In this document: positions 126 through 22,942 of the stretch, piece by piece
Layout of the letters: every line of letters starts with the position of its first letter
Numbering within the stretch: the first letter of the stretch is position 1
Notes under the pieces: generated by a model
Databases searched by the model: none
The model's input: only the letters and a program-made list of their open reading frames with translations
What the model was told of the DNA's origin: nothing
IMG/VR virus record: IMGVR_UViG_3300028797_000096
Location: 205,860-231,566 of that record
Source of the DNA: a virus
Lineage: Duplodnaviria; Heunggongvirae; Uroviricota; Caudoviricetes
Length of the DNA: 25,707 nt
Strand: one strand, 5' to 3'
Translations under genes and position numbers: made by a program

Positions 126-2528
126 ATGTTAGTTTCAAGAAATGTTTTACAGTCCTACCCAGATTTACGTGGACAATCTAATAATTATTATTTTGCTTCT
201 AGACAAGATAGAAATACCTACTTTAGTAACCAGCCAATTGCAGAAATGCAATTATGTGCTGTAGGTGGTAATCCAGATTCTACAAATTGGGATGAAGTAG
301 TATGGGAAGTTGAACAATTTAATGGTGAAAACTGGGCAGTTGTTCCTATGGATACTAATTTTGCATTAGTTGTAACTAATGAAGGTATTCAAGCTTTAAC
401 CAATGCTTCTCTAGGCCAATATAAATTAGAAATTTCGCGTGTTGCTATAAAGCAATCTTTATTTCCATCTGGAACTTCTTTAGCTAGTTTAACAAAATCT
501 GATTTCTTCAGTAATTATGAAGACATTTGTTTAGATACTAAAAATGTATTAAATTCTACATTTACTTTAGATAACAGTCTATCTTATCGTACAAATTTAT
601 TAAATGGTGGATTACAATTTACAGTTGAATTAGGATTAGATTGTTTAGGACAAGAATCTTTATCTGAAACAAGCCGTATTGCTCCAACATTAGTGGTTTT
701 TGATGTAGCTGTAATTGGTTTATTTGTAAAAGATCAAAGAGATACAAATAGTACTGAAGATATTTTATTTGGAATAGCATGTTTACCTGCGGTTGTACAA
801 AAGATTGCAACAACCCCTACTCGTGTTGGTAATTCATTAAAATTCTACTTGAATACTACATTAAGTAATATGGCTAATGTTACTAATTTATCTGTATTAA
901 AAAGCTCAGTTAATAGTGTACCCGAAGTATCAAAAGATGATGATTTAATCGATACTTATGATGGTATTTCTGCACCCTATAATCTTTATTTAGTAGATAA
1001 TTATAGTGGAACAAATATTCCTGCTTTGGCTGTTAGAAAAGGTAACCCTTTAAATAGTACTACTCCTATTTCTTGGACATATTTTACACCAACTGATGAT
1101 AATGTATATATTTCTGATACATCTTTAATCGATTTATATGATGAGCTTACAAATCCAACAGGGTTACGTAATTATATGATTGCAGCTTGGGATAATGACT
1201 CAGGAAAATATGTTGCAGCAGATGGATCAGATACCGATCAGCAAATGGCAGGTTTATATAATAATTATTATTTGTCTTATGCCGGTAAAATTAATAATAT
1301 GAATACTCGTTATAATTATTCATATCAATGGAATAATGATGCTGCTGTTAATTATAGAGAAGGTGATACTTTACTAGTAAGTTTTGATAATCCTTCTAAT
1401 CCTACACAATCTCAAACATTTACAATTAAAGTTATTGGCTTAGAAAATGCAGAAATGGGTAAACCAAATGAATTTTATGTAACTCCAACTTCTGGTAATA
1501 CATTTATTGGTACAGATAACCCATACAGAGATGTTAGTTATAGATATATAGAACCAGGAAGAACTTTAGGTACTGGTTTATTATTTAAAGTTAATGCAAT
1601 AAATGCAGATTCAATTAGTTGGAATTTCCCAACGAGTTGGTTAAGTAAACCATTATATGTTGATTATGACCATAGTACTGAAAGTGCAGCTACATGGGAA
1701 AGTTATTGTATTAGTATTGGTTTAGATCCAACTACAGAAAATAAAAATCGCTGTGGTAAATTAACAATTGAAAGAACAGCTATGTTTGTGGGTTGGTGTG
1801 TAGATAGTAATGCAATTAAATTAGCATTAGACTTACGTAATGAAGCAACTGAAACAACGTATGGTACTACAGCTTATGCAACAAATGCAGAAGTAAATAA
1901 TGTATATGGAAATTCTGTAGCTAAAAATACAAAATCAGTAACTCCAGAAACCTTACAAAATAATTACTTACAAACAACTATTCCAGGAACTCCACGCACT
2001 TTAAATGGTAATGAAGGTAATGCAATAAACAATCCTATTGTAGTTAATACATATACCAGATTTGATAAAGTAATTTATGGTAAAGGTACTTCATACTCAG
2101 CAAGCGGTAATTTATCTAATGTATCTTTCTATGGTACTGCATATCGTGCGTTATGGGAAGACTTAGCAGAATATTATAGATCAGATAAAATTTACCCAGC
2201 TGGTACATTGATTTGCATTGGTAGTGGTAACGCTGAAATTACAGAAGCAAAAACAGAATGTAACGGTATTATTTCTACAAAGCCTGGATATGAATTAGGC
2301 GAAAAGAAAGATGCTCGTGATTTACCTGTTGCTTTAATTGGTAAAGTACCAGTATTATTTGCAGATGATTGTGTACCTAGTTTTGGTGAAAAAATATATT
2401 TGTCTAAAACCACTCCAGGTAGAGCATCAACTATACCAAATGGTAAATGCTTAGGTAAAGTAATCGATAAACGTGAAGATTTAAATCAAACACATTCTAT
2501 CTTATGCTCAATTAGAATTGAATTTTAA
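126..2528 (+). CDS. phage tail fibre/baseplate protein with C-terminal Peptidase_G2-like intramolecular chaperone
   Basis: VVTNEGIQALTNA...LEISRVAI resembles tail-fibre N-terminal (DUF3751-like) domains; EATETTYGTTAYATNAEV...VTPETL resembles the T4 gp34/gp12 fibre repeat; C-terminal DLAEYY...GIISTKPG...PVALIGKVPV fits the G2 autoproteolytic chaperone pattern. Confidence 0.75.
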   Translation: MLVSRNVLQSYPDLRGQSNNYYFASRQDRNTYFSNQPIAEMQLCAVGGNPDSTNWDEVVWEVEQFNGENWAVVPMDTNFALVVTNEGIQALTNASLGQYKLEISRVAIKQSLFPSGTSLASLTKSDFFSNYEDICLDTKNVLNSTFTLDNSLSYRTNLLNGGLQFTVELGLDCLGQESLSETSRIAPTLVVFDVAVIGLFVKDQRDTNSTEDILFGIACLPAVVQKIATTPTRVGNSLKFYLNTTLSNMANVTNLSVLKSSVNSVPEVSKDDDLIDTYDGISAPYNLYLVDNYSGTNIPALAVRKGNPLNSTTPISWTYFTPTDDNVYISDTSLIDLYDELTNPTGLRNYMIAAWDNDSGKYVAADGSDTDQQMAGLYNNYYLSYAGKINNMNTRYNYSYQWNNDAAVNYREGDTLLVSFDNPSNPTQSQTFTIKVIGLENAEMGKPNEFYVTPTSGNTFIGTDNPYRDVSYRYIEPGRTLGTGLLFKVNAINADSISWNFPTSWLSKPLYVDYDHSTESAATWESYCISIGLDPTTENKNRCGKLTIERTAMFVGWCVDSNAIKLALDLRNEATETTYGTTAYATNAEVNNVYGNSVAKNTKSVTPETLQNNYLQTTIPGTPRTLNGNEGNAINNPIVVNTYTRFDKVIYGKGTSYSASGNLSNVSFYGTAYRALWEDLAEYYRSDKIYPAGTLICIGSGNAEITEAKTECNGIISTKPGYELGEKKDARDLPVALIGKVPVLFADDCVPSFGEKIYLSKTTPGRASTIPNGKCLGKVIDKREDLNQTHSILCSIRIEF

Positions 2529-4229: not shown

Positions 4230-4661
4230 GTGGAAATATTACCAGATACATATTTGGTAATTACAGCAACTGATATATTACAAGGCGATATATCTACATC
4301 TAAATATAATAATATAGAAATCTGGCATAGAATAAAAGTAATTCATTTCTTTAATACTGCCAGATTATTTTTTTATAAAGAATTTAATGTAAATGTAACA
4401 GAATTTCATTTAATTCAAGCAAAAAACGCTTCTAAAGAACCAATTCCAGATCCAAACGGGCATTATTCTTGGTTAAGAATTAAAACTAAAGATAACCAAT
4501 TATCTGATTGGATAGTTACAGATTTTTATCCATCTAAAACATACTGCGCAGCAAGTGCCGCTTTTGATACTGGAAATTTAACACAAGCTAATAGTGCATT
4601 TAGATTTGGATTAGTTCAATCTTTATCTAATAATAACTATTCTATAACAGATTTAGTATAA
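4230..4661 (+). CDS. hypothetical protein (143 aa, GTG start)
   Basis: AAGGAG RBS at 4218-4223; open frame; 3' end overlaps the convergent ORF by 25 nt. Confidence 0.65.
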   Translation: MEILPDTYLVITATDILQGDISTSKYNNIEIWHRIKVIHFFNTARLFFYKEFNVNVTEFHLIQAKNASKEPIPDPNGHYSWLRIKTKDNQLSDWIVTDFYPSKTYCAASAAFDTGNLTQANSAFRFGLVQSLSNNNYSITDLV

Positions 4662-5047
4662 ATTAAATTATATACATACCATTTAAATGATTTAGGCTCT
4701 TCTTCTGAAATATCATATAATACACCATTCTCATCAAGTGCCAATCTATCTATAGAATGATATATACCATTAGTAAAATCATGATTTTGTTGATCTTTTA
4801 GTACTGTATACTCATCTTCTGTAAAAAATAAACATGCACTATATTCTATTTCTGTTCCAGGTGTTTTTAATAAAGGAAAAGTATTTGTATATTTAGAAAA
4901 ATATGGAATTAAAAATTCTAAATTTTTACTAGTTAAATAAGCTTTATCTAAATAAATAATATCATCTTCTGGAATATCTATAAATAGTGATGGATCTTCT
5001 TGATCTATTATATCTTGATCATCAAAATATTTATATTGTATAATCAT
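4637..5047 (-). CDS. acidic hypothetical protein at the end of the radical SAM cluster
   Basis: GAGGA RBS and its own upstream AGTTCTA motif; 136-aa open frame. Confidence 0.7.
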   Translation of the reverse strand: MIIQYKYFDDQDIIDQEDPSLFIDIPEDDIIYLDKAYLTSKNLEFLIPYFSKYTNTFPLLKTPGTEIEYSACLFFTEDEYTVLKDQQNHDFTNGIYHSIDRLALDENGVLYDISEEEPKSFKWYVYNLIYTKSVIE

Positions 5048-5069
5048 TATTCTATCCTCATTATTAATA

Positions 5070-5076
5070 TAGAACT
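5070..5076 (-). promoter_or_regulatory. AGTTCTA motif
   Basis: TAGAACT on + strand in the 30-nt intergenic gap, about 23 nt upstream of ORF 4637..5047. Confidence 0.55.
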
Positions 5077-5077
5077 A

Positions 5078-6121
5078 TTAATTTTTTGCTAACCATTCAT
5101 AGAACATTTTTATTGCACACCCTTGGTTTTTACTATTTTCATGCATTTTACTTGCCATACAAGGTAATCTACAATAAGAATAATGTTTACATAAATTACA
5201 ATTCAAATTAGAAGTAGCAATAGTGTATTGCCTTTCTGTGCATTGATCTGATAAGCATTCTTTTAAAGTCATACCATATTCTTTCAACATATTTAAGGTA
5301 CCCGAACGGATTAAACAACTAAAAGTAAGCTTATTATTTATAAATGAACAACTATTTGAGCAAACACAATATCTTCCATTTGGATTTTTATAACTTTCTA
5401 TTAATTTGTTTATTTCATCTATATTATTATACCCTTTTTGATAATAATATTTATAAAACTCAAATAAATCCTCATTTGAAGGTGCATATTTTTCCCAATT
5501 TTTATTATAAATATAATATTCTGGATATAACTGATAATTTTTAAGTCTATCTAATACATCTGAATTAAGATATGCAATAATATTTGGCTTAGTCAGTGTA
5601 ATTGATATAACTTGTGGTCTAAAATATCTAATATTTTGCCACCATAGGTCTTCTTGCCTCTGATTATTAAATCTTTCTACTGGATCATAAGAAGTGGCAA
5701 TAACACTATTAGTATCATCTAAAAAATCTTGTACTCTTTTTATGTTTTTAAAGACTAAATTTGAAGAATAACAAAATTCAACTGTATATTTATATGAAAT
5801 AGCCCAAGTTTCTATAGTATGTTGTAAATATGCATAAGCTTCTAGGTATTCATCACTTAAACTATCCATAAAAACTTCGCCTCCCCAAACACGAAAAGTA
5901 AGATGTTTAATATTAGGACGGCTCTGCAAAGCTTCTTTTAATTGTGGTAATAAATATTTAGATAATTCTTTAATTTCTTGAGGAGTTTTAATAGAAGTAT
6001 GCTCCTGAAAACAAAATTTACAGCCCAAATTACATCTGTCAAATAAAATTAGACAAATTTCTAAAAAATCATAGCTTGGATAAAATTGTTTATATAATTT
6101 ATTCATTATCAAATAACTCAA
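5078..6121 (-). CDS. radical SAM protein with C-terminal SPASM-like Cys cluster (rSAM-7)
   Basis: CNLGCKFC, WGGEVF, TSYDPVERF, C-terminal CVCSNSC...C and CNLCKHYSYCRLPC...C. Confidence 0.92.
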   Translation of the reverse strand: MSYLIMNKLYKQFYPSYDFLEICLILFDRCNLGCKFCFQEHTSIKTPQEIKELSKYLLPQLKEALQSRPNIKHLTFRVWGGEVFMDSLSDEYLEAYAYLQHTIETWAISYKYTVEFCYSSNLVFKNIKRVQDFLDDTNSVIATSYDPVERFNNQRQEDLWWQNIRYFRPQVISITLTKPNIIAYLNSDVLDRLKNYQLYPEYYIYNKNWEKYAPSNEDLFEFYKYYYQKGYNNIDEINKLIESYKNPNGRYCVCSNSCSFINNKLTFSCLIRSGTLNMLKEYGMTLKECLSDQCTERQYTIATSNLNCNLCKHYSYCRLPCMASKMHENSKNQGCAIKMFYEWLAKN

Positions 6122-7259
6122 ACAAGGCTTTTAATTGGCATTTTTGAGGTTTTTGCTTAACAATTGATTGAATAAAACATTTTGGTTTACAAAAAGGTTT
6201 ATATTTACAATACATACAACCAAATTTATTATCAAAGTAAGCTTTAACCTCTTGTTTATTGCTTAAACAATACAATCCTTCATTATTCTTTGGTATAAAT
6301 TGTAATATTTCATCATATTTATGCTCACTTATATTACTTAATATACTACTTATACAATTTTTATTGATTATTCTTAATTCATCATCTGTATATACTGCTT
6401 CTGTATTGATTGATTCGGCTGCAAATTGTAATAAAATACACTCATTTCTAGGCTGATTGTCTATATATTTGTGAGATATTCTATTTTTATAAAAAGATAA
6501 AACAGAATGGTTAGGAAAATTTTCTTTTATCTTAGTATAAAAACTTACCAAATCTTCTGTAGTTGGATATAAATCATAATTTTCTATATTATTTAATATA
6601 TAATCTTCAAATGAAATATCATACTTATCATTATTTAATAATATTTCATTTAAAATTTCACTACCTTCTTTATTTTGTAAATAATTTTGAATTCCATACG
6701 TAGTTAATATCATTTCTACCATAATTTTTTTATCTAAAGAAGATTGTAATGTTTTTAAATTATTATTCCATAAAATTAATTGCTCCTTAGTACTAAATCT
6801 ACCCCATAAATCAAAAGATGTAGTAATACAAACATTTATACTTAATTTCATTAAAAATTTAGACAACTCAATAAAATAAACCAAATGCTCTTGATCTAAT
6901 AATAAATTACTTTGAATATTAAATCTAATTTTTATATAACGTTTAGCTACAATATCATATAAATCTTTTGCAACTTGTTTATATAGATCAAAATATTGTT
7001 TATCTAAATAAAATAATTCACCTGCAACAAAGAAAAATGTAATGGTAATATCCGGAGGTAATTCATAAAGGTGTTTATTTAGCCAATTTTTAGTATTTGT
7101 AGTAGTTTTAATAAAATGATCTAACGATACATTATTATTAATCATTCTTTTTGATATAATACAAAATTTACAATTATTATTACAAGAAGTCTTACTCAAT
7201 CCAAATGGATTTATAGTTAATTCTTTTGAATATTTTAAATATTCTAATAAATCTTTCAT
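6099..7259 (-). CDS. radical SAM protein (rSAM-6)
   Basis: CNNNCKFC, AGELFYL, TSFDLWGRF, C-terminal CMYCKYKPFCKPKC...C. Confidence 0.9.
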   Translation of the reverse strand: MKDLLEYLKYSKELTINPFGLSKTSCNNNCKFCIISKRMINNNVSLDHFIKTTTNTKNWLNKHLYELPPDITITFFFVAGELFYLDKQYFDLYKQVAKDLYDIVAKRYIKIRFNIQSNLLLDQEHLVYFIELSKFLMKLSINVCITTSFDLWGRFSTKEQLILWNNNLKTLQSSLDKKIMVEMILTTYGIQNYLQNKEGSEILNEILLNNDKYDISFEDYILNNIENYDLYPTTEDLVSFYTKIKENFPNHSVLSFYKNRISHKYIDNQPRNECILLQFAAESINTEAVYTDDELRIINKNCISSILSNISEHKYDEILQFIPKNNEGLYCLSNKQEVKAYFDNKFGCMYCKYKPFCKPKCFIQSIVKQKPQKCQLKALFELFDNE

Positions 7260-7307
7260 TTTATTAATGTTTCTTATAATCTATATAAGCTATCTTTTTC
7301 ATAAAAC

Positions 7308-8513
7308 TTATTCATTTATTAACTCGTATACTTGTTTTTTCCAACATTCTTTAGGCATATATTTTAAAGTCATTATACCCATACAATACCTATTACATAC
7401 ATTACTATACTTACAAAAATCGCAATGTAATGTTTTATTAAAATATTTATCTACTAACTTTGGTTGATCAATACATATAATACCAGATTTAGGTAAATCT
7501 TCATCAAAATCTCTGTTTATATCAAAGTTAGGCATATTATGGTATTGTGTATAAATACAAGAATCAATAGGTACTGAGCCATCTTCAATACATTCATGAT
7601 GATATGGAGGTTGAGTCCATCCAGGTACATTAAACGTTAAAGCATGACAATTGTTATAATAATATGTTGGTTTAGGAATATTTAAATCTTCAACTTTATA
7701 TGCATTAATTATATCACAATTTGGATGTTTTTCTTTAACTTTTTTATAAAAAGCCAATACTAATTCTTTTGAAGGAATTAATTCTTTAATTTGTTCTTCT
7801 GAATTAGGTACATATTCTTGCATTGTTATAGAAATTTTTGGATTTTTTAATAGCTCATCAAATATTCTACATAATACCATATTTGTTTCATTAATATAAG
7901 TTTCTAAAGCTGGTGTAATCAATAATGTTTCAACATGGATCTTTTCATTTTCATCTAATTGTTCCATTAATAATTTAATAGTATTCATCCAATTAAATAA
8001 GCTTTGTGGAGTATTAAATCTACCCCATAAATCAAAAGAAGTACAAATATTCGGATGTTTACCTAACAAATTACTACATTTATTATAAAAATCTACAAAA
8101 GCTTTTACTCTATCTTCATTAAATAATAAATTAGTAAACAAATTAACAACAGGAGTCTTTTTTAATATAGGTGATAATAAATTCCATCCTGTTTCTAACC
8201 AATTATAATATTCAGTATAATAATCATCTGGCAAATAAAATAATTCCCCACCGATCATTTGAAAATTACATTTGATATCTAACAAATTATTTTTTATAAG
8301 TTGTGGAATTATAGTATCTTTAATCCATTTATATTGAGAATCTTTAGCGATACGTAAATCTTTTATAGACTGAGGTAATCCCATACAGTCTGCTGTAATA
8401 CAAAATTTACATCTATTATTACAAGATGGACGAATTGGATCATAGCTAATTACTTCTAAAATTTTAGACTTTTTAATACATTCTATATAACTCTGCGTAT
8501 TTAAATACTTCAT
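7308..8513 (-). CDS. radical SAM protein (rSAM-5)
   Basis: CNNRCKFC, GGELFYL, TSFDLWGRF, C-terminal CDFCKYSNVCNRYC...C. Confidence 0.92.
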   Translation of the reverse strand: MKYLNTQSYIECIKKSKILEVISYDPIRPSCNNRCKFCITADCMGLPQSIKDLRIAKDSQYKWIKDTIIPQLIKNNLLDIKCNFQMIGGELFYLPDDYYTEYYNWLETGWNLLSPILKKTPVVNLFTNLLFNEDRVKAFVDFYNKCSNLLGKHPNICTSFDLWGRFNTPQSLFNWMNTIKLLMEQLDENEKIHVETLLITPALETYINETNMVLCRIFDELLKNPKISITMQEYVPNSEEQIKELIPSKELVLAFYKKVKEKHPNCDIINAYKVEDLNIPKPTYYYNNCHALTFNVPGWTQPPYHHECIEDGSVPIDSCIYTQYHNMPNFDINRDFDEDLPKSGIICIDQPKLVDKYFNKTLHCDFCKYSNVCNRYCMGIMTLKYMPKECWKKQVYELINE

Positions 8514-9481
8514 CTTAATATCTCTTCATATATTTTAGTTAAGCCTGGGCAACCTGTCTCATCAAACTGTAATTGACAACAATCGCCATTACATATTTTG
8601 TAGAACTTACAGAATTTACAAGGATTTGGAATACTTTTTTCTATTTTAATTAAAGTATCTTCTAAATTTTTATTATATATATTATCTTTGGTTTTTATAA
8701 TCTTATCTGAACAATTTGGGCATGCACCTAATGATCCATCTGTATTTAAAGTACGAACATTCTGCATACATTCTCTTCTTCTACACCCAAAAAAGTCTTG
8801 CTTATAATGTATTAACTCTTCAAACAAAGGAATTTCTAATTGGAATTCTTTATTTACTATAAAAACTTCATATAACCAATCATCTATTTCTCGATTTGTT
8901 GGTTTAACCTTAACCTCTGCTGCTCTGCCAGTTTCTGTAATACGTTCAAAATTTACTATATGAATACCTAAAGCTTTAAAATAAGTTAATAATTCTTTTG
9001 GCTTATGTAATACAGTCTGATTATTAACAGTAACTATCACTTGAATATTAAAACCTAATTTTATCAATTTTCTTATATTTATTTCCCATAAATTTAATTG
9101 GTCTTTTGTTTTAAATCTATAATCATCTACATCCCAGCTTGTTTTAATAAACTTATTTGTAAACTTATTAAACAAATTTATATGATCTTCAGTTAAATCA
9201 TACATTAAATTAGTAGTAGCACTCCATATTACATTAGGAAAAGTATCTATTAACTCAATATAAGGTTTTGTATCTTTTATTAAATAAAAAGGTTCACCTC
9301 CATGAAATACACATTCTAAACTATCATCTTTAGCTAAACCTTTAAGCATATCACTAATTACTTCTTTAATTCTATTTATATCTAAAAAAGATATTTGCTG
9401 TAAAGTACATGGTTTATAACAACCTTTACAAGCTAAATTACAACTATCAGTTAAGCATAAATAAAGTTTTTTATTTGTCAT
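8510..9481 (-). CDS. radical SAM/SPASM protein (rSAM-4)
   Basis: CNLACKGC, FHGGEP, C....C...DGSLGACPNC, CKFCKFYKICNGDC...C. Confidence 0.93.
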   Translation of the reverse strand: MTNKKLYLCLTDSCNLACKGCYKPCTLQQISFLDINRIKEVISDMLKGLAKDDSLECVFHGGEPFYLIKDTKPYIELIDTFPNVIWSATTNLMYDLTEDHINLFNKFTNKFIKTSWDVDDYRFKTKDQLNLWEINIRKLIKLGFNIQVIVTVNNQTVLHKPKELLTYFKALGIHIVNFERITETGRAAEVKVKPTNREIDDWLYEVFIVNKEFQLEIPLFEELIHYKQDFFGCRRRECMQNVRTLNTDGSLGACPNCSDKIIKTKDNIYNKNLEDTLIKIEKSIPNPCKFCKFYKICNGDCCQLQFDETGCPGLTKIYEEILR

Positions 9482-10385
9482 TATAACTTTCCCACCACTC
9501 TAGTAATTCTTTACAACCATCACATTTTAAATTAGTAATATGCTCTGTCCAACAATTACCATAATATTTACAAAACCCACATTTCTTTCTATATAAATGT
9601 AATTCGTTGTTACAATCTTCTATATATTCTTTAATATTATCATACCATTTAAAATACTCTAAATTATTTTCATTATAATAAATTGCACCTAACTTTCCAT
9701 CTGGTCCAATTCTAATGCATTGATCATTTGTTGCAATAGGATAATTCCTTTTAATACACTCATTTAATCCACAGATATGTCCAAGCTGATATTCATATTT
9801 ATTCTGTAAATATACTTCTGTTAAATTCTTCAAAGTATTTTGATATTGTTCTTGAGAAATATTAAATATATCACCAGTATTAATACTAGGATAATACTTA
9901 ATAAAACATACATAATCAATATTTAAATTTTTATAATCATCTAATATTTCTTTTGGATCTGTATTAATAATACTAGGTGTTATCATACTCAATACAGATA
10001 ACTTCCTTCCTAATATGTTATTTTTTAATTTATTCTTAATATCTTCATAATCTGGTCTTTCTTTATTTAAAGAAGTTGATAATATAGTATCTTCAAATAT
10101 TTTTAATTTTTTTATGTCATATAAATTACTTGTAACAAAATTTGGTGCATTATAACTATTTATTATATTATTTAATTCAATTAAATATTCTTCATCTAAT
10201 AAAGTAATTTCACCTCCATATAAATTAAACTTATGAATTTTAAAATATTTTGATATTTCAACTAATCTTTGTTTTAGTATATTCAAATCTAATACTTGTG
10301 AATGATGATTGTTATGTAAATAACAAAATTCACAATTTTGATTACATTGATAACTAGGAAAAATGGACACTATTATTTCACGCAT
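9471..10385 (-). CDS. radical SAM protein (rSAM-3)
   Basis: CNQNCEFC, YGGEI, C.RIGPDG, CGFCKYYGNC...C..C. Confidence 0.92.
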   Translation of the reverse strand: MREIIVSIFPSYQCNQNCEFCYLHNNHHSQVLDLNILKQRLVEISKYFKIHKFNLYGGEITLLDEEYLIELNNIINSYNAPNFVTSNLYDIKKLKIFEDTILSTSLNKERPDYEDIKNKLKNNILGRKLSVLSMITPSIINTDPKEILDDYKNLNIDYVCFIKYYPSINTGDIFNISQEQYQNTLKNLTEVYLQNKYEYQLGHICGLNECIKRNYPIATNDQCIRIGPDGKLGAIYYNENNLEYFKWYDNIKEYIEDCNNELHLYRKKCGFCKYYGNCWTEHITNLKCDGCKELLEWWESYNDK

Positions 10386-11199
10386 TAGCTTTTACTTTTT
10401 CATAGAATTTTGGATAAAAGGAACATCTAGTATGTAACTCACAAGGCCTACAAACTTTTGCATATTTACAATCAAAGCATTTTATTAATATATTTCTACA
10501 CCTTTCACCGATTATACAACCTGGTCTAACAGTTCCATCAGGTAACAAAGTTATACTATTACATTTAAAATCCCAGTGTAAAATTTGTTCTTCTATTAAA
10601 TTTTTAATTTTAATTCTTTTATACCGCCAAAGTGTATAAATATTACATAACCATTCATCTATCTTATTTTGGAAATCATTAGTTAAAGTATTATCAACTA
10701 ATGGTTCAAATAAAATTTCTTCTATACCAACTTCTTCTAAATCTTTTATTACTTTAGTAAACATATCAATATCAAAATGTAATAAATCCTGATCTAATGT
10801 AATTAATACCAAAGGTTTATTATTTAAACTTTTTATATTATTTAGCCATTGTAAATAATGCTGTAAATTAAACCTATTCGGATTCCAACTTGTTGCTATT
10901 GGAATATCTCTTTTGTTTAAATCTTCTATTATTTCTGGTTCAGTAATTAAATTTGTACAAATCGAATCAATTATATTTGTATCCATTATTTCTAAATATC
11001 TTTTTGGATATAAAGTAGGCTCACCTCCATGCAAAATAAAAGAGGCTTTAGGATATTTCTTTTTCAATTCTTTTAGTTTTGTAATGAATACTTCTTTATT
11101 GTAGGTATCTGTATATTTATGTACAAAACAATGCGGACAATGTAAATTACATTGCCAAGTAGGAACTACATAAACTTGCTTTTGTTTAGATAAGGTCAT
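10378..11199 (-). CDS. radical SAM protein (rSAM-2)
   Basis: CNLHCPHC, HGGEP, TSWNPNRF, C..ITLLPDG...GC, CFDCKYAKVCRPC....C. Confidence 0.92.
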   Translation of the reverse strand: MTLSKQKQVYVVPTWQCNLHCPHCFVHKYTDTYNKEVFITKLKELKKKYPKASFILHGGEPTLYPKRYLEIMDTNIIDSICTNLITEPEIIEDLNKRDIPIATSWNPNRFNLQHYLQWLNNIKSLNNKPLVLITLDQDLLHFDIDMFTKVIKDLEEVGIEEILFEPLVDNTLTNDFQNKIDEWLCNIYTLWRYKRIKIKNLIEEQILHWDFKCNSITLLPDGTVRPGCIIGERCRNILIKCFDCKYAKVCRPCELHTRCSFYPKFYEKVKANA

Positions 11200-12151
11200 G
11201 TTTTTTTAATTCTATATAATGTTCTTTCATCCATTTACAATGTTCTTCTTTGATTGGTTCAGTACTTTGTCTATTTAAAGAACATCCATTACAAATATTA
11301 TACATTGGACAAGCATAGCATTTACTAAACAGAACGCCTTTTTCTACTTTATATTTACCTTGTGAACTAATTTCTTCTTCACAATTACCTTCAATTAAAC
11401 AATTGTTTATATCTACATATACTACTTTTAATTGCTTACAATTTTTATATGATGCACTAAATGGACAAATTTTTCTTTCAATATTTAATAAGTTACCTTC
11501 ATGATCTGCTAATCCTTTATTATATAACTCCAAATATATTTCTAATAACCTATATCTTGGAAAATACTCTGTTGCTTTTCCAACTGGTAATTGTGAATTT
11601 AATTTAACCCATACATCTAATTCTTTTGCTAATTCTACCGTTTTTATTGCATATTTTACATTATCATTATTAATAACACTAATAAAATCTAATTTTTTCT
11701 GATATCTATTATAAAATTTCCAAAATAAATCTAAAAAACGTTCTTCTGTATATACTTTGTCATCTTTTCTATCATCACCATATTGAAAAGAAGTATCTAC
11801 TCCAACTTTTGGATTATTAAATAACCAATCCCATTCTTCTGGATTATTATACCATAATACTAAATTACTTGTAATACTAACCCAATAATCTACTTGTGTT
11901 TTATCTAATGTATCAAATAAATCATCCCAATAAGATTTAGGATTCATTAAAGGTTCACCACCTGTAATAATAATATTAGTAGGTTTATAATCTAAAATAT
12001 ATTGTTTTAAAGGCTCTGGAAGTTTGTTATGAAGAGGTATATTTAATAATTTTGCACTACAAAAAGCACAATTAAAATTACATGCATTAGTAGGTTTAAT
12101 TATTAAAGTTTTAGAAGTACTTAATAAATTATCCTGCATTATCTTCACCAT
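11186..12151 (-). CDS. radical SAM/SPASM protein (rSAM-1)
   Basis: IKPTNACNFNCAFC, TGGEPL, CYACPMYNICNGC...C; the true start may be the second Met near 12139. Confidence 0.93.
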   Translation of the reverse strand: MVKIMQDNLLSTSKTLIIKPTNACNFNCAFCSAKLLNIPLHNKLPEPLKQYILDYKPTNIIITGGEPLMNPKSYWDDLFDTLDKTQVDYWVSITSNLVLWYNNPEEWDWLFNNPKVGVDTSFQYGDDRKDDKVYTEERFLDLFWKFYNRYQKKLDFISVINNDNVKYAIKTVELAKELDVWVKLNSQLPVGKATEYFPRYRLLEIYLELYNKGLADHEGNLLNIERKICPFSASYKNCKQLKVVYVDINNCLIEGNCEEEISSQGKYKVEKGVLFSKCYACPMYNICNGCSLNRQSTEPIKEEHCKWMKEHYIELKKHDLI

Positions 12152-12869
12152 CTTCTTGATTATTTAGAACTAAACCAAAGAAAGATATAGAAGGTAAATT
12201 TAAAAACTCTGTATATAAAATAGAATTTTTATCTATTTGTTCTAAAATAAATGTATAATTAGCAGGTTTAATTTTATCAGTATAATATAACCTAATCGCA
12301 TCAAAAACAATAGGATATTGTTGTAATAATAAATGTAATACTTCAAAATATAATGGTTTTTCAACAATTGTTTCTAAATCAGAAGTTATTGTAACATCAC
12401 TAAATTTTGTTCTAGTAGGATTTTCTAAAGCATAATCAAGTAAAAGGTTTAAAGAAACAATAAAGCGTAACATTTCATTTACCAGATCTTTATTATTCTC
12501 TTTAAATTTAATTGTTTCTTCAGGTGTTAATATATTAATAATATTATCAATCGGACCATCTGCTAAAATACTTAAAATGGTTTCATTTAATTCTTTTATT
12601 GATAAATCGTATAAACAGGCATCTAAATATTTTAAAATCCACTCTTCTTTTACTTCATATGTACATTTAGAAAAATCACAAGGAAAAGGTAAATCTATAT
12701 TGCGAAGATAAATTAAACTACATTCTACTTTATTTGATTCTAAATCTGGATCATCATATTTAATACTTGCAATATCTATACAATACTCACTTATATCTAC
12801 TATAGGATTACCTTCATTTGAAATATCTAATACTTCATCAGGAACAGGTAATGTAATTAATTGCTTCAT
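12129..12869 (-). CDS. hypothetical acidic protein, putative accessory factor of the radical SAM cluster
   Basis: Strong AAGGAG RBS; lies between the CHSN-repeat gene and rSAM-1 and overlaps the latter; no recognisable motif. Confidence 0.75.
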   Translation of the reverse strand: MKQLITLPVPDEVLDISNEGNPIVDISEYCIDIASIKYDDPDLESNKVECSLIYLRNIDLPFPCDFSKCTYEVKEEWILKYLDACLYDLSIKELNETILSILADGPIDNIINILTPEETIKFKENNKDLVNEMLRFIVSLNLLLDYALENPTRTKFSDVTITSDLETIVEKPLYFEVLHLLLQQYPIVFDAIRLYYTDKIKPANYTFILEQIDKNSILYTEFLNLPSISFFGLVLNNQEDGEDNAG

Positions 12870-12892
12870 TTAAATCTCCTTTTAATATTATT

Positions 12893-13666
12893 CTAACGCC
12901 TTGAACGATTTGTGTGGCAATTACTATGGCAATTGCTATGACAGTTAGAATGGCACCAATATCTAGCAAAGAATACAATATTACTTGCACTAGAACTATC
13001 ACTTGCATTGCCACTCCACCAGGCTGCTTGGTTATTTTGTGTTTGCCAAGAATCTTTAAATTTATTTACCTGTGTTTGTAAAGTAGTAAGATAATTAACC
13101 ATATTATTAACAGAAATTATAGTGCTCGCTGTTAATTCTCTTGTCATAGTCCAACCACTGCCTCTATCAGGAATAGTTTGATATCCAGTATTATCAGTAT
13201 TTGAATTACTAACAGCCGTAGGTTTAGTATAATTACCACCTAATGTAATATTTTTTTTAAAATATGTCCAAGTACCATTTTTTGGATTAATGCCATATGA
13301 ACTAACAACTGAAGCAGGAGAAGCCGTTGAACCGGGTGCATTAGCACCTACATTAAAATAATATACTTTTCTACATCTACCCATTTGTACAAAAACTCGC
13401 TTCATTAAATCCCAAACCTTAGAAGCTTTAATTAACTGATTTGTACTAGCAGGTTCACCTTCTGTATCAATTATTGCACAAATATCGGTATATAAACTAT
13501 CTCTTGTAGACAAATAAGGCGTTAATTGACTATCTGGAGAATTGTCACTCGACCAAGCAGAAGTCGGTAACATATTATAAATAGTTGATTTTAATGCCTC
13601 TTTAAATCCATCAACAGTATCATTACTGGGAGCTTTTTTAAGCTTAATCTTATCATTAGTAGCCAT
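12893..13666 (-). CDS. 257-aa protein with C-terminal (CHSN)x3-CHTN-RSRR tail; putative radical SAM modification substrate, possibly a virion protein
   Basis: First gene of the unit that holds 7 rSAM genes; Cys every 4th residue at the C-terminus; Ser/Thr/Asn-rich body. Confidence 0.7.
   Translation of the reverse strand: MATNDKIKLKKAPSNDTVDGFKEALKSTIYNMLPTSAWSSDNSPDSQLTPYLSTRDSLYTDICAIIDTEGEPASTNQLIKASKVWDLMKRVFVQMGRCRKVYYFNVGANAPGSTASPASVVSSYGINPKNGTWTYFKKNITLGGNYTKPTAVSNSNTDNTGYQTIPDRGSGWTMTRELTASTIISVNNMVNYLTTLQTQVNKFKDSWQTQNNQAAWWSGNASDSSSASNIVFFARYWCHSNCHSNCHSNCHTNRSRR
12896..12955 (-). repeat. coding 12-nt tandem repeat encoding CHSNCHSNCHSNCHTN plus RSRR
   Basis: TGC CAT TCT AAC / TGT CAT AGC AAT / TGC CAT AGT AAT / TGC CAC ACA AAT. 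Confidence 0.95.
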
Positions 13667-13747: not shown

Positions 13748-14059
13748 ATGATTTCCTTAAAAGTTAAAGCTTTTCTTATCGGTGGAGCTATAATAATCAT
13801 CGGTACTTTATTTTCTTTATGGCGTATTACAAGTATAAAGCTTACTAATACTCAACGCCAATTAACTGAGGTTACTTGTCAATTAGATACCGTAACCAAA
13901 GAAAACGCTAATTTAATTGAATATAATAAGCGTAGAGATAGCCAAATTAAAGAATTAGAGAAAGCCTATCAAGAGCAATTAAATACAATACCGGCTGATT
14001 CTTGTGGTGATATGAAGCCCTCAAAAGAAATGTTAGATTTCTTTAAACAAGGGAGATAA
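13748..14059 (+). CDS. putative inner-membrane spanin (Rz-like)
   Basis: One N-terminal TM helix, a long coiled coil and a C-terminal C.D..P motif; immediately upstream of a lipoprotein gene; AAGGAG RBS. Confidence 0.7.
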   Translation: MISLKVKAFLIGGAIIIIGTLFSLWRITSIKLTNTQRQLTEVTCQLDTVTKENANLIEYNKRRDSQIKELEKAYQEQLNTIPADSCGDMKPSKEMLDFFKQGR

Positions 14060-14061
14060 CT

Positions 14062-14298
14062 ATGAAAAGATTAGTTTTATTATTGATATTGGGATTATTT
14101 TGTTTAATGCTTGTTGGATGTTCTTGGTTTAATTCATCTAAGCCTATCCAGACAAATCAATACTATCAGACAGATTACAACTACTTCTGTTATGAAGAAG
14201 GTAAAACTTGGTCTCAAATTGTAGTATGTTTAACTGCAGAGGGTAAAGCAGAACGTACCCAAAATAAAATTACCAATGATTTATTAAATCAAAATTAA
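14062..14298 (+). CDS. putative outer-membrane lipoprotein spanin (Rz1-like)
   Basis: MKR, hydrophobic stretch, lipobox LVGC; small mature domain with two further Cys. Confidence 0.7.
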   Translation: MKRLVLLLILGLFCLMLVGCSWFNSSKPIQTNQYYQTDYNYFCYEEGKTWSQIVVCLTAEGKAERTQNKITNDLLNQN

Positions 14299-15320: not shown

Positions 15321-16274
15321 TTAATACTGTAATTCAGCGTCTTTTTTCTTTTGCATTATTTTTAATTTATAAGATTGTAATTCGCCTATTTTTGCTATAG
15401 GATTTACAATAATTTTAACATCTGAATTTAACTTATATTTACCATCTTCACTAAATGGAGTTAATTCAACTGATCCAAAACCTTGTAATGCTTGATGAGA
15501 ATAGAATCTTTCTGCAAAATTAATGTTATGATCATCAACTGTTCTACCTTTTTGATAAGAAGGAGTTTGAATAGATTGACGATTTTTCATTCTTACTTCA
15601 CCTGTTTGATCAATATACATAATTGGATCTGAATAATCGGCTACAGCATGATGTTTATGACCAATCCAAATTAAATCGGCTAATGTACCTTTCATAATAC
15701 GATTAAAATCAATCATACCTTTAGTTACTGGGCTATTACCACCTGCGCCATGATTTTGGAATATATCATAATGTATAATAGATTTATTTCTATTATCTAC
15801 AAAATTAAATCTTAAAAAATTAGCATAATTACCATATTGTATTTGATGTTTACTTCCAGTATTTAATAATTGTGTAACAAGTTGTAATACATCTACTCCC
15901 GAATACTTTAAAATAGATTCTTCGTGATTACCACGACCTATAAACAAAATGCTATCTTTATAAGGTCTTAAAAATTCAACTACATCATTAATTTTAACAT
16001 TTAACTGATTATCTGTCTTTTCCATAAGATGATTTACTGCTCTTTTACCGTCTCTTAATAAAATAGCATCGAATAAATCACCACCAATAAGGATATATCT
16101 ACCATCCTTTAAACAAAAATCTAAATGCTTTTTTAATGTCGTTTTATCACAATCTGGGGAATCAAAGTGAATATCTGAAAATAGAGCTAATTTTAAAGTT
16201 GTACCTGCTTTTAAAGGTACACTATATTGCAAAGCTTTCATTGTAAAATTTCTCCCTATAATATATCTATTCAT
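15321..16274 (-). CDS. calcineurin-like metallophosphoesterase
   Basis: SDIH, GGDLFD, GRGNHE, HG and GHKH motifs; likely true start at 16241 (MKAL) behind a GGGAG RBS. Confidence 0.88.
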   Translation of the reverse strand: MNRYIIGRNFTMKALQYSVPLKAGTTLKLALFSDIHFDSPDCDKTTLKKHLDFCLKDGRYILIGGDLFDAILLRDGKRAVNHLMEKTDNQLNVKINDVVEFLRPYKDSILFIGRGNHEESILKYSGVDVLQLVTQLLNTGSKHQIQYGNYANFLRFNFVDNRNKSIIHYDIFQNHGAGGNSPVTKGMIDFNRIMKGTLADLIWIGHKHHAVADYSDPIMYIDQTGEVRMKNRQSIQTPSYQKGRTVDDHNINFAERFYSHQALQGFGSVELTPFSEDGKYKLNSDVKIIVNPIAKIGELQSYKLKIMQKKKDAELQY

Positions 16275-16319
16275 ACCAGATTAGTACATAATAGAGATAT
16301 ATTCTTCCTTTACATATAA

Positions 16320-16326
16320 TAGAACT
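16320..16326 (-). promoter_or_regulatory. AGTTCTA motif
   Basis: TAGAACT on + strand between the terminator and the phosphoesterase gene. Confidence 0.55.
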
Positions 16327-16339
16327 TCTCTAAAATTTT

Positions 16340-16365
16340 AAAAACCCCTAGTTTACTTCTAGGGG
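16340..16365 (-). terminator. rho-independent terminator after the glycosyltransferase gene
   Basis: CCCCTAG-7 nt loop-CTAGGGG followed by a T5 run on the - strand. Confidence 0.75.
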
Positions 16366-16375
16366 CTTTACGAGT

Positions 16376-17398
16376 TTATTTCTTCTTTTTCTTATCTTCT
16401 TCTTGACATTCTGTTTCTAATTTTTCTATAAATTCCTTAAATCCTATTCGAGGTATAATCCTAAACATTTTATTACCTAAATAGCAATTTCTCATTACTT
16501 CATTATAGCAGTCTGACAAGATTTCATCAGAAATTTTATCTTTAATTTCACGATAAATCTCACGATAATATTTGCGACACCATTCCCAATTTTGTTCTTC
16601 ATATCTAGGATCAGAACGCTGCGTTTCTAAGAAATATTCATATAAATTACATAACATAACTACTTTTTGTTGCATTACTTGACCATTAAATGGAACAACT
16701 TTTTCTGCTTCTTTTAAAGCATTTATTTGATTTGCAGTAAAACCAACAAAAGAACCATTATATGAATAATTTGCGTTATCTTTTCTAGTAATTGAATCCT
16801 CTTTAAAACACCAATAATATAAAATATCAGGAATTTCTATAATCTGTTCATTTTCATTTTGATATAATTTACACAATGTATTCCAAAAGCCATCTTCATT
16901 ACTACGACTATTCTCTGGTGGAAAATGTACTTTATATTTATTAATAAAATCTCTACGATATAATTTACCAAACATCCAAGGATCCATACCACCATGTTCA
17001 AGATATGCTTGTTGTTGATCTTCTAAAAAATGCCCAAATACTCCTACAATACGAGGATCTTTTAACATATTTAAACGTGCAATTTTTAAAGCAAATCTAC
17101 CAGAAAATGTATCATCAGCATCAATAAATGTTATAATAGGATTATTAGTTTCATTAACACCTTTTTGACGAGCTTCACCTGGACCAGCATTTTCTTCTAA
17201 AGTAATTTCTTTAATTTTCATATATGGAGAAAACATATCTATAAATTCTTTATAACCAATTCCATCTGCGTCATTTACTATTGTAACTTCAAGATCTTCT
17301 ACAATTTCTTGTTCTGCAATAGAAGAAAGCGTACGAATAATTGTATTCTGTGCTTTATAAGCTGGAATAATTACATCAATTTTTGGTAGATCACTCAT
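16376..17398 (-). CDS. glycosyltransferase family 2 (GT-A fold)
   Basis: DVIIPAYK, IVND, NAGPGEARQKG, FIDADD (DxD), WMFGKLYRR, NED. Confidence 0.92.
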   Translation of the reverse strand: MSDLPKIDVIIPAYKAQNTIIRTLSSIAEQEIVEDLEVTIVNDADGIGYKEFIDMFSPYMKIKEITLEENAGPGEARQKGVNETNNPIITFIDADDTFSGRFALKIARLNMLKDPRIVGVFGHFLEDQQQAYLEHGGMDPWMFGKLYRRDFINKYKVHFPPENSRSNEDGFWNTLCKLYQNENEQIIEIPDILYYWCFKEDSITRKDNANYSYNGSFVGFTANQINALKEAEKVVPFNGQVMQQKVVMLCNLYEYFLETQRSDPRYEEQNWEWCRKYYREIYREIKDKISDEILSDCYNEVMRNCYLGNKMFRIIPRIGFKEFIEKLETECQEEDKKKKK

Positions 17399-19374: not shown

Positions 19375-22300
19375 TTATTCCATTACATAAAGTTTGTTAT
19401 TAATACCTCTATACATATATTCAGCTGTATTATTATCACGATATCCTGTTATATATGTATCAGTTATTCTTATTCCAGTAACTGTTATTTTAATATAACC
19501 ATTACCACCTTTTACTGGTGCATTCCATCCTGTTACACCTCCTCCATAACCATATTCCATTCCATATGGACTTTGATTATTACCTGTAACTAAAGATCCT
19601 CCATTATTACCATTATTACCTTTAACACCTGTAAATATATAGTCGGTATTTGTAGTATTTATAAAATTACCACCTTTTGGACCCAATGCTTTATATGGAT
19701 CTGGTGTATAATAACCACCTTTAGCTTCTGTTAACATTATTCCATTCGGTGAAATTACACTAGAAGTTCCGCCATCTGCTGGAGAATTCCCTAAATATAT
19801 TTCATTTGCAATTGTTATTCCATTTGAGCCTTCTCCAATAATTAAGGTATAATTTCCAGCTAAGCTTTCATTATCAGGTACAGTAATTGTTGTATATGCC
19901 CCACTTCCTCCAGATATAGTCATATAATTACTATATACAAACATTGATTCACCACCTGCCCCTGCACCAACTACATCTATTTTATAACTATTACCTTTTC
20001 TTAAAGTACATGTATAAGTACCTGGAGTATTACTTTCAAATATAATTTTATTTACTTCATATTGTAAATAAACTTCTTTTGTTATAGAATTTTCTGGCAT
20101 TATATATGTAATAGTCTGTGATTCATATCTATTTAATGGATCAGCTACTACGCAGGTTATTAATGTACCAGCCGGAGCTGCAATACTATTACCAATTTGA
20201 GTATACCCATCTGCAGTTAATGTTATAACTGCATCAATTGGATCTGTTTTAATAGTTAAAGCTGGATATACTGATAAGGTTACATATACATTTGTAGTTT
20301 TATCAACTAAAGCAGTAACTGTTTGAGAATAATAATCTTGTTTACTTACTGTATAAGTAACCGTGGTTCCTCTTGGTACTATACATGTATTATTATTTAT
20401 AACTTGACCATCATATTCAAAGTTTACAGTTGCATCTGAAGGTATTGGATTAATTGTTAATGTAACATTATCCAAACTTTTTAAATATACTCCATCTTTT
20501 GTACCGATTGTATCATAACCCGCTGATGTAAACGAATTATATGTTTTTGTATAATTTCCTGTTACATCTCTAAATGGAATATATACATTTATAGGATTAG
20601 TATTTCCTAAAAAACAACCTGTTGCATATGCGACTATATTCGAAGTAATATTAATATCTCCACTAAGATTAGTTGACTGAAAACAACCTGTCATATCTAT
20701 AACACGTTTTGGAATATTTGGTGCAGTAGTTAATAATATACACTTAGAAAAAGCATATGCCATGTTTATAATAGAATTTGGTAATGGTTGTATAGTATTT
20801 AACCATCCACATTCTTTAAAACAATAAGATAAATCTTGTATAGAATTACCAAAGTTAGGTGTTGTTCTTATATTACTACAACCTTCAAAACAATATGCCA
20901 TATTAATTACAGAATCTGGTATATTTTGTGGTGTATTTACTGTATTTTTACAACCACTAAAGCAATACGCTATATTTGTTACACTATTGCCTATTCCAAA
21001 GGTACCTGTACTCATTAATTTATTACAATTAGCAAAACAATAACTAAGTGTTTTAACTGAATCAGGAATTTTAAGGGGAATATACTCTATATTTGTATCA
21101 CTAAATGTACCGCACATATTAACAACACTTGTAGGAAGGCTTGGTACACTAGATAACTTTGTATTACTAAAGCAATAAGATAAATCTTTAACATTAGTAG
21201 GTAAATTTTCTACATAAAATAATTGCCTACAATTATAAAAAGTATATGCCATATTAGTAATACTAGGAGAATCACAAAGATTTGCGCTATTGATAATCTG
21301 ATCATTATGAAACATCGCATAAATATTTTTAACAGCTGTCAAATCTAGTTTCTCAAAATCTTCTGTTGTTTTAACTACATTATAAAACATATTAATACAG
21401 CACAAATTTTCAGAAGAAGGTAATCTAATGCCATTTACATCTAAATTATAACAACCATAAAAACAATTACATAAATTATTAACACAATCTGGTATAGCAG
21501 GTGGTATAACTAAATTTTTACAACCTTTAAAAGTATCTGCCATATTTATAACTGAATTCGGAATACTCGGTACTATAATATGATCAATAAAAGCAAATGT
21601 TCCACTCAAATCATTAATATTACTTGGAAGATTAACTGTACCTTCTATATTATGACAACTATAAAAAGCATGTGATAGATTTGTAACAGAATTTGGTATA
21701 GTAGGAAGAGTTGTTAATTTATTATCCATATAAAATGTATACGCCATATTCGTTACATTTTCTGGTATACTTGGAGTAGTTGTTAAATTTCGGCAATAAT
21801 AAAAACAATAACTTAAATTTTTAACACTATTAGGAATAGTAATATCGAATTCTATTAAATCATCATTTTGCCCAAATAACCATTGCCAACTTTGTAAATT
21901 ATTTAAATTTTTTATTTTCTTTATTTTATCATACCAATCAGTAACCCCATTAAATATTTTAAATATCTCTAAATTTTCATGAGTAGGTAAACTTAATTCC
22001 ATAGAATTAATATTATGGCAATTCGCAAATATTCTAGAAAGATTAATTACACTTTCTGGAATTGTTGGAGGTGTAATTAAATTTGTACAACCAGCAAAAG
22101 TAGATGCTAAATTTTGTACAAAATTTGGTAAAATAGGGGCTTGGCTTAAATTTGTACAATTACTAAAAGCATATGGCATTTCTAATACAGAATCTGGTAT
22201 AGAAGTAACTGTTGTTAAAGAAGTACAATTTCTAAATGTTGAATTTAATATTAAAAGTGAATTTGAAAAAGCTGAAGCAGTTGTTAATCCAGTACAATTA

Positions 22301-22929: not shown

Positions 22930-22942
22930 TTTAATCTACCCT

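Follow-up and report, generated by a model that had tools for sequence, protein, structure and literature searches.

We analysed a window of 25,707 nucleotides (nt), positions 205,860 to 231,566 of the IMG/VR virus record IMGVR_UViG_3300028797_000096 (Caudoviricetes), which is the terminal part of a record of 231,566 bases with an estimated completeness of 93%. Both full-length matches to the window DNA, its possible source, are labelled bovine gut metagenome, and near-identical pieces of it were found in a second study with the same label, one contig of which covers 12907-13272 with no differences. No RNA data set was among the matches listed for this DNA, which carries no information about expression. 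The minus strand from 4637 to 13666 is occupied by ten open reading frames (ORFs) of 257, 246, 321, 273, 304, 323, 401, 386, 347 and 136 amino acids (aa), which include a protein ending in a repeated Cys-His tail and seven radical S-adenosylmethionine (SAM) enzymes; this cassette is the subject of the present analysis. Overlaps of 4-23 nt were found at six of the nine ORF junctions and gaps of 23-48 nt at the other three, and the run of ten co-oriented, mostly overlapping genes described in an earlier, sequence-only reading of this DNA was recovered with the same order and sizes. Its placement between fibre and lysis genes was also borne out: on the left, fibre genes with Pfam and PHROG matches converge on the cassette, and on the right are a spanin-like pair and a holin that scores at the PF16083 cut-off. 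The genes of the run and the fibre gene are as follows, with families named as in the clustering described below.

12893-13666, minus strand: putative substrate and likely virion protein, 257 aa, alpha/beta body with a C-terminal (CHSN)3-CHTN-RSRR tail.
12896-12955, minus strand: tail-coding stretch of the above, four C-H-x-N units followed by RSRR.
12129-12869, minus strand: conserved accessory protein of family F3, 246 aa; F3 profile E 1.2e-23, the profile having been built including this protein.
11186-12151, minus strand: radical SAM/SPASM enzyme of core family R2, 321 aa; PF04055 48 bits, R2 profile 274 bits; matches in 15 cultured-phage records.
10378-11199, minus strand: short second copy of core family R0, 273 aa, lineage-specific; R0 profile 117 bits.
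9471-10385, minus strand: radical SAM enzyme of core family R4, 304 aa; R4 profile 227 bits; C-terminal Cx2Cx5Cx3H.
8510-9481, minus strand: radical SAM/SPASM enzyme of core family R0, 323 aa; R0 profile 257 bits; matches in 15 cultured-phage records.
7308-8513, minus strand: divergent R1-like radical SAM enzyme, 401 aa; R1 profile 72 bits; about 30% identical to its 386-aa neighbour.
6099-7259, minus strand: divergent R1-like radical SAM enzyme, 386 aa; R1 profile 88 bits; locus L177 has one such gene versus two here.
5078-6121, minus strand: radical SAM/SPASM enzyme of core family R1, 347 aa; R1 profile 213 bits, phrog_1802 E 1.7e-25.
4637-5047, minus strand: 136-aa protein, co-oriented, outside the conserved cassette.
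126-2528, plus strand: fibre protein of family F9, 800 aa; Peptidase_G2-related chaperone domain at the C-terminus; PHROG tail-fibre matches.

The C-terminus of the 257-aa protein reads WCHSNCHSNCHSNCHTNRSRR. Synonymous codons differ between the repeats, so the tail did not arise by recent DNA slippage. When the tail was removed, the body matched a profile of 84 other tail-free family bodies (E 3.6e-7), as did the body of gp170 of phage Atu_ph07 (E 1.9e-8), and a profile search enlarged the family to 908 clusters at 50% identity. The body is variable, with a mean column identity of 18% in the alignment. The exact end (CHxx)3-RxRR is present in 136 of the 150 top profile hits, one or more CHxx units are retained in the remaining 14, and the body by itself suffices for all 150 to score. 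The residue two positions after His (His+2) was Ser in 358 of 409 units, Asn in 39, Ala in 9, Asp in 2, Gln in 1 and never Gly, Gly being found at His+1 in 70 of the same units; a second count gave Gly at His+2 in 0 of 279. The tail therefore has the triceptide-type motif, an aromatic residue followed at the second position by a residue bearing a beta carbon, and the absence of Gly is the pattern expected if His+2 must supply that carbon, as in triceptides.

A model of a family body folded confidently (pLDDT 90), the 257-aa protein's own model reaching 64. The former had no Foldseek match at E<=0.001 (best VIA Z 4.4), and neither model had a convincing match among solved folds. In the viral structure library, the second row of the fold search was a 296-aa Atu_ph07 protein at E 0.53, which is too weak and was not used; ESM Atlas returned leads below 0.9 only, or nothing. 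A homotrimer prediction for a 180-aa family member scored 0.00, which is no answer and was used neither for nor against any reading. The 257-, 246- and 136-aa proteins had no Pfam or NCBIfam match at E<=0.01, and no significant PDB sequence match was obtained with the alignments of the substrate, F3 and F6. As a matter of judgement, we did not adopt a heme-c interpretation of the CxxxCH spacing, because the motifs overlap and there is no evident export signal. In locus L014 (4201-5569) the substrate gene appears split: a 308-aa protein with a Gly_rich_2 domain (41.7 bits) begins with the first approximately 45 residues of the substrate, and the rest, Cys-His tail included, is encoded by the following gene (140 aa). 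The N-terminal helix of the substrate may be a transferable docking piece.

The tail DNA pattern was found at no fewer than 122 loci in IMG/VR (about 300 estimated), for 80 of which the flanks were retrieved, and at 47 loci in GTDB, 38 of them true ORF ends; by our own count, 26 of these 38 are in records titled Bdellovibrionota. When the phylum of one such genome was sampled evenly, the pattern matched in 10 of 301 genomes. By tblastn, the R0 and R2 enzymes each matched the same 15 cultured-phage records. The carriers are jumbo phages, other viral contigs and Bdellovibrionota genomes. Clustering of 2,121 neighbour proteins from 125 loci revealed a recurrent set consisting of R0, R1, R2, R4, F3, F6, F7 and the cupin F8, with R10 enzymes, a B12 radical SAM enzyme and 2-oxoglutarate (2OG)-Fe oxygenases as optional members.

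Sixty-eight loci, the window and some close relatives included, have the tail gene flanked by 8 kb or more on either side. R1 was present in all 68, R0 in 63, F3 in 62, and R2 and R4 in 61 each, and the four core enzyme families occurred together in 58. Because the tail pattern was the selection criterion and close relatives are among the loci, these counts show association and not independent events. As a chance control, seven full-length loci in which the pattern falls outside an ORF end were examined; each had no radical SAM ORF, versus three to eight per true locus, so the co-occurrence exceeds chance. In addition, a (CHxx)3-RxRR gene lies behind the R0 enzyme in all four translated cultured-phage clusters (RSL2, Atu_ph07, pPa_SNUABM_DT01 and Phosso), and thus no homologous cluster lacking the tail gene was encountered among them. 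These data indicate that the tailed protein and the enzymes are co-inherited as one system, as the sequence-only reading had proposed. We conclude that the cassette is widespread and that this locus is a divergent copy of it.

In a subgroup, L007, L032, L039, L040, L044 and similar loci carry two short tailed genes (124-140 aa) in tandem behind a fibre gene, together with several R10 enzymes and two different accessory families. In L162 (1871-3092), two genes face away from another seven-enzyme cassette, and one of them ends in a long Ser-rich stretch with two Cys. These Ser/Cys-rich proteins were considered as substrate homologues and rejected, having no homology to the substrate body; the Ser-rich protein is possibly a second kind of modifiable tail.

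All seven enzymes of the window have a CxxxCxxC motif beginning at residues 14-31 followed by a GGE/AGE motif, the signature of the radical SAM superfamily, and all seven have the C-terminal Cys cluster noted earlier from the sequence, here Cx2Cx5Cx2-3(C/H). TIGR04085 (SPASM) was matched by the 323-aa enzyme only, at 20.2 versus a cut-off of 27 bits, and family R4 seems to be without the first auxiliary Cys set. PF04055 matched five of the seven, two of them over the cut-off, and phrog_1802 matched four. The 401- and 386-aa enzymes had no library match, yet they scored on the cassette R1 profile as listed above. The set is thus made up of R2, R4, R1, two R0 and two divergent R1-like enzymes. 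The 273-aa R0 copy falls in a clade with those of L001, L162, L029 and L021 (support 0.96). The best NCBIfam match of the 323-aa enzyme was the cyclophane maturase AmcB, at 43.6 bits versus a cut-off of 425, which makes it, weakly, a candidate cyclophane-forming enzyme. L177, the closest complete relative, has the same gene order with six enzymes, and the seventh enzyme here is the second divergent R1-like gene. Seven enzymes had been regarded as an unusually large set; at least seven are present in 15 of the 68 loci, so the number is within the range of the family.

The 246-aa protein, listed as an unknown in the sequence-only reading, belongs to the conserved system: family F3 was found in 62 of the 68 loci, usually directly behind the substrate gene. 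F3 has no consistent Pfam match and no PDB match, and no detectable relationship to F7 (probability 0.4); it is possibly a chaperone or a substrate-presenting partner. The 136-aa gene, which had also been included in the run, could not be retained. It has no counterpart among the 125 loci, is absent from L177 and has a single homologue (61% identity), and for these reasons it was not counted in the system. A profile test rejected it as the 139-aa family F6 of the cassette.

A fibre-type gene was found within 10 kb of the tail gene in 57 of the 68 loci. F9 is the commonest such gene by the cassette, and its C-terminal domain is related to the self-cleaving chaperone of phi29-type appendages: the profile of the F9 C-terminus matched the phi29-type preneck appendage 3gqh (E 4.4e-4), and PF11962 was matched by 33 of 43 F9 members at E<=1 (best 1.3e-7), the 800-aa protein of the window not being among them. 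From this gene context, the F9 fibre is the likely partner structure on which the tailed protein would dock. Neighbours in Bdellovibrionota include a protein with a prepilin leader that ends in an S74 chaperone domain and a stand-alone 200-aa protein weakly resembling the Peptidase_G2-type domain of F9; Bdellovibrio fibre adhesins have been published (PMC10769870). This pair accompanies the cassette in 11 of the 68 loci, for example at L149 1564-3410.

The homologue gp170 is listed in the published particle proteome of Atu_ph07 (PMC6102473, Table S5) with 31.9 kDa, 8 peptides and 35% coverage, and peaks in band 1. In our own count of that table, 26 listed proteins have a mass of 25-36 kDa and 4 or more peptides, and gp170 is the only one of them to peak in band 1, the other 25 peaking in bands 7-13. 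Since bands 1-2 hold the maxima of the largest proteins and band 13 those of the smallest, we read band 1 as the gel top. The table does not give peptide identities. The cassette enzymes and accessory proteins gp164-169, gp171 and gp172 are unlisted in this proteome, and the fibre homologue gp176 is listed. The earlier guess that the product is a virion component thus receives support from outside the window. gp176 (L003 8599-10422; 66 kDa) peaks in band 4 with proteins of 50-56 kDa, and the 66-kDa portal peaks in band 3; this position would fit removal of the C-terminal chaperone domain.

Taken together, we consider it probable that the enzymes cross-link the tail, joining His to the beta carbon of His+2, forming Cys thioethers and tailoring the product further, and that the protein subsequently joins the particle, still bearing the tail. 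One core enzyme, R0 at best guess, would join each His ring to the beta carbon two residues on (Asn here, Ser in most relatives), another would act on the Cys thiols to give thioethers, the remaining enzymes would tailor the product, and the 246-aa protein would present the substrate. The modified tail would stay on the 257-aa protein, which would probably be built into the virus particle on the chaperone-folded fibre. Its most likely use would be as a rigid, possibly metal-binding contact for the diderm cell surface, or as a lock holding subunits together. Of this, what the data show directly is the genes, their motifs and co-inheritance, a near-invariant tail on a variable body, and one homologue in a particle preparation. 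We hold only tentatively, and with some doubt, the wider proposal that phages and predatory bacteria share a radical-chemistry pathway in which the tail of a new-fold fibre protein is converted to a cross-linked metal-binding polycycle, possibly also with subunits linked into a polymer resistant to sodium dodecyl sulfate, for recognition of or entry into diderm prey, and in which the enzyme set adapts to oxygen through the exchange of oxygenases for extra radical SAM copies.

Several points weigh against tail cross-linking on the particle. The modification, its chemistry, the enzyme roles and the site on the particle are what we infer, no modification having been observed in any member. All similarities to characterised maturases are far below the cut-offs and two of the enzymes have no PDB sequence match at E<=0.01, so the chemistry and individual roles given above are guesses. 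Four to eight enzymes are many for three or four short repeats, and the missing Gly at His+2 could instead reflect structure or metal binding. The particle evidence is one homologue, gp170, related to the 257-aa protein only through the profile. The Atu_ph07 stock was purified with polyethylene glycol, the proteome list also holds metabolic enzymes (PMC6102473), and disulfides could explain the band 1 position because the loading buffer, as written, is without reductant. The RSF1 record labels the homologue 'hypothetical', yet calls its neighbour a virion protein, and the structural-gene list in the available part of the FLC6 paper omits the homologue. Lastly, a recognised fibre gene is missing within 10 kb in 11 of the 68 loci.

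Among other explanations, the one that survives best, although we regard it as unlikely, is that the Cys-His tail is an unmodified metal site on a particle protein, and that the enzymes act on other residues of this protein or on residues of the fibre, or make a cofactor which the tail carries. Metal can be bound by a Cys/His array of period four, and examples are known of phage fibres in which His coordinates iron or zinc. The oxygenases, cupin and B12 radical SAM enzyme vary between loci while the tail is unchanged. However, metal binding leaves the invariants that are not ligands unexplained, namely the lack of Gly at His+2 and the fixed RxRR end, and the body, at 18%, is too variable to offer another conserved target.

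We give little credence to a classical pathway for a peptide made on ribosomes and modified after translation (RiPP), with the body serving as a large leader from which the modified tail would be cleaved and set free as a signal, antibiotic or metallophore. The C-terminal core with a basic end, the many tailoring enzymes and the presence of the cassette on bacterial contigs would suit such a pathway. However, the homologue body is found in particles and runs high, not low; a family body folds confidently as a domain (pLDDT 90); and, in keeping with the sequence-only reading, no protease or exporter was recognised in the window libraries or among 30 representatives of the recurrent neighbour families, several of which are unnamed and could include a distant protease.

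It is very improbable that the protein acts in the periplasm as an internal or ejected factor, such as a DNA-binding escort or a decoy against HXS-type defence. HxsA binds DNA via its basic His-x-Ser repeats (PMC13128918), the present tail is also rich in His and Arg, and the proteome cannot tell inside from outside; however, the gene tracks genes for fibres and chaperone domains across phage groups with no relation to each other, as well as in bacteria that do not eject DNA. Least probable is that the enzymes are auxiliary metabolic, cofactor or nucleotide-modifying genes with the tailed protein as a mere neighbour, as radical SAM clusters of Campylobacter phages have been read (PMC2853527), for the weak viperin, MoaA and QueE profile matches over the N-terminal core are far below cut-off and mostly to the shared core, and, despite dihydrofolate reductase genes inserted in RSL2-type clusters, many rearrangements have not separated the tail gene from the enzymes, and SPASM-like C-terminal clusters are present in all seven.

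This copy of the cassette differs from most in having Asn in place of Ser at His+2 and extra radical SAM paralogues, and a profile search of the whole record found no match to F6, F7, the cupin, the oxygenases or the B12 enzyme. Oxygen-dependent families are present in 52 of the 68 loci. The cupin is absent in 11 of 12 loci with a second R0 copy versus 9 of 51; the p-value of this association was not used because the tree shows only about three independent origins. The distribution is only a hint of a radical enzyme replacing an oxygenase in an anoxic habitat, and in this gut-derived lineage the extra paralogues may stand in for oxygen-dependent tailoring enzymes. The only other radical SAM match of the genome is a 171-aa protein at record positions 167590-168105, whose size and context suggest an anaerobic ribonucleotide-reductase activase.

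On the right flank, a membrane-anchored coiled-coil protein and a protein with a lipobox (LVGC) at 13748-14298 form the spanin-like pair, an arrangement suggestive of a diderm host. Next to the lysis genes, at 15321-17398, are a phosphoesterase-like gene (phrog_7339) and a family-2 glycosyltransferase. Further to the right (19375-24700) are two paralogous BspA-type leucine-rich-repeat proteins of 1184 and 585 aa, one of them carrying DUF285 together with a weak head-fibre match; both are likely surface-binding proteins of the particle. A promoter scan was at chance level (88 versus 100.6).

The cassette is real, widespread and apparently undescribed, and radical SAM maturation of a repeat-bearing protein is in itself of a known kind. 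Papers on carrier phages, as far as available, only list its genes (PMC11898562, PMC8066314, PMC7029224), the accessible parts of PMC2853527, PMC5468394, PMC7412058, PMC7824862 and PMC9062424 contain no description of it, and the term 'radical SAM' does not occur in those of the jumbo-phage overview PMC7824862. A text search for CHXXCH and CHSNCH found neither string in the papers listed, its results being swamped by unrelated words. No description of the cassette as a system was found in the literature searched, most subscription journals and the original RSL2/RSF1 proteomics lying outside the search, and the same literature gave no precedent for a radical SAM-matured virion component. A modified tail, if confirmed on particles, would be categorically new: phage particles would carry enzyme-built chemistry missed by genome annotation and standard proteomics, and four uncharacterised radical SAM families with a defined, repeated substrate would be open to new reactions. 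That predatory bacteria have the same kit next to fibre genes points to a common mode of contact with bacterial surfaces. The proposal is directly testable, since cultured phages carry the cassette and one has existing proteomics, and the present copy, with an Asn tail and without oxygenases, is a natural minimal version for reconstitution.

Campylobacter phages CP220 and CPt10 resemble the carriers in being large lytic phages with many radical SAM genes of no assigned function; no substrate is proposed for these clusters in the available text (PMC2853527), and no Campylobacter phage record matched the two core enzymes or the substrate by tblastn. CXXX-repeat systems likewise have a Cys at every fourth residue in a repeat adjoining radical SAM genes. 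However, TIGR04115 scored 19.9 versus 350 bits, the 257-aa protein has no NCBIfam match, and none of 66 family members matched TIGR04114 among the families listed; a low-ranked ESM Atlas look-alike carrying the TIGR04114 target family (score 0.81) is a lead only.

Triceptide enzymes (HaaB, YhhB, XncB, OscB, MscB) are radical SAM/SPASM enzymes that link an aromatic residue, His C2 included, to the beta carbon at i+2, for which Ser, Asn, Ala, Asp and Arg have been reported (PMC11002830), and the tail shares their aromatic-x-Ser/Asn/Ala motif. In contrast, the substrate here is a folded protein of 120-430 aa, a Cys precedes every His, and no protease or transporter was recognised; scores against the cyclophane maturase families were about a tenth of the cut-offs (AmcB 43.6/425, YhhB 29/445 and GrrM/OscB 23.9/310 bits).

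In the HXS antiphage system, two radical SAM enzymes, HxsB and HxsC, together with HxsD, mature the His-x-Ser-repeat protein HxsA, which binds DNA through its basic repeats and blocks DNA entry; a change of +8 Da was mapped to SHRSS (PMC13128918). As here, a folded repeat protein and co-encoded radical SAM enzymes with a small helper are involved, and the product stays a protein. The two differ in that the present repeats are Cys-His-x-Ser/Asn, at the extreme C-terminus and followed by RxRR, that there are four core enzyme families versus two, and that the carriers are phages and predatory bacteria, with a homologue in particles. Among the HXS enzymes only HxsC was matched, at 21.7 versus 267.9 bits, with none of the Hxs cut-offs passed, and the His-x-Asn repeats occur without a match to a peptidoglycan-binding domain of the HxsA type or to HxsD. 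Judged from sequence, the cassette would work most like HXS and carries a triceptide-like motif, and it is a member of neither of these families nor of the CXXX-repeat family.

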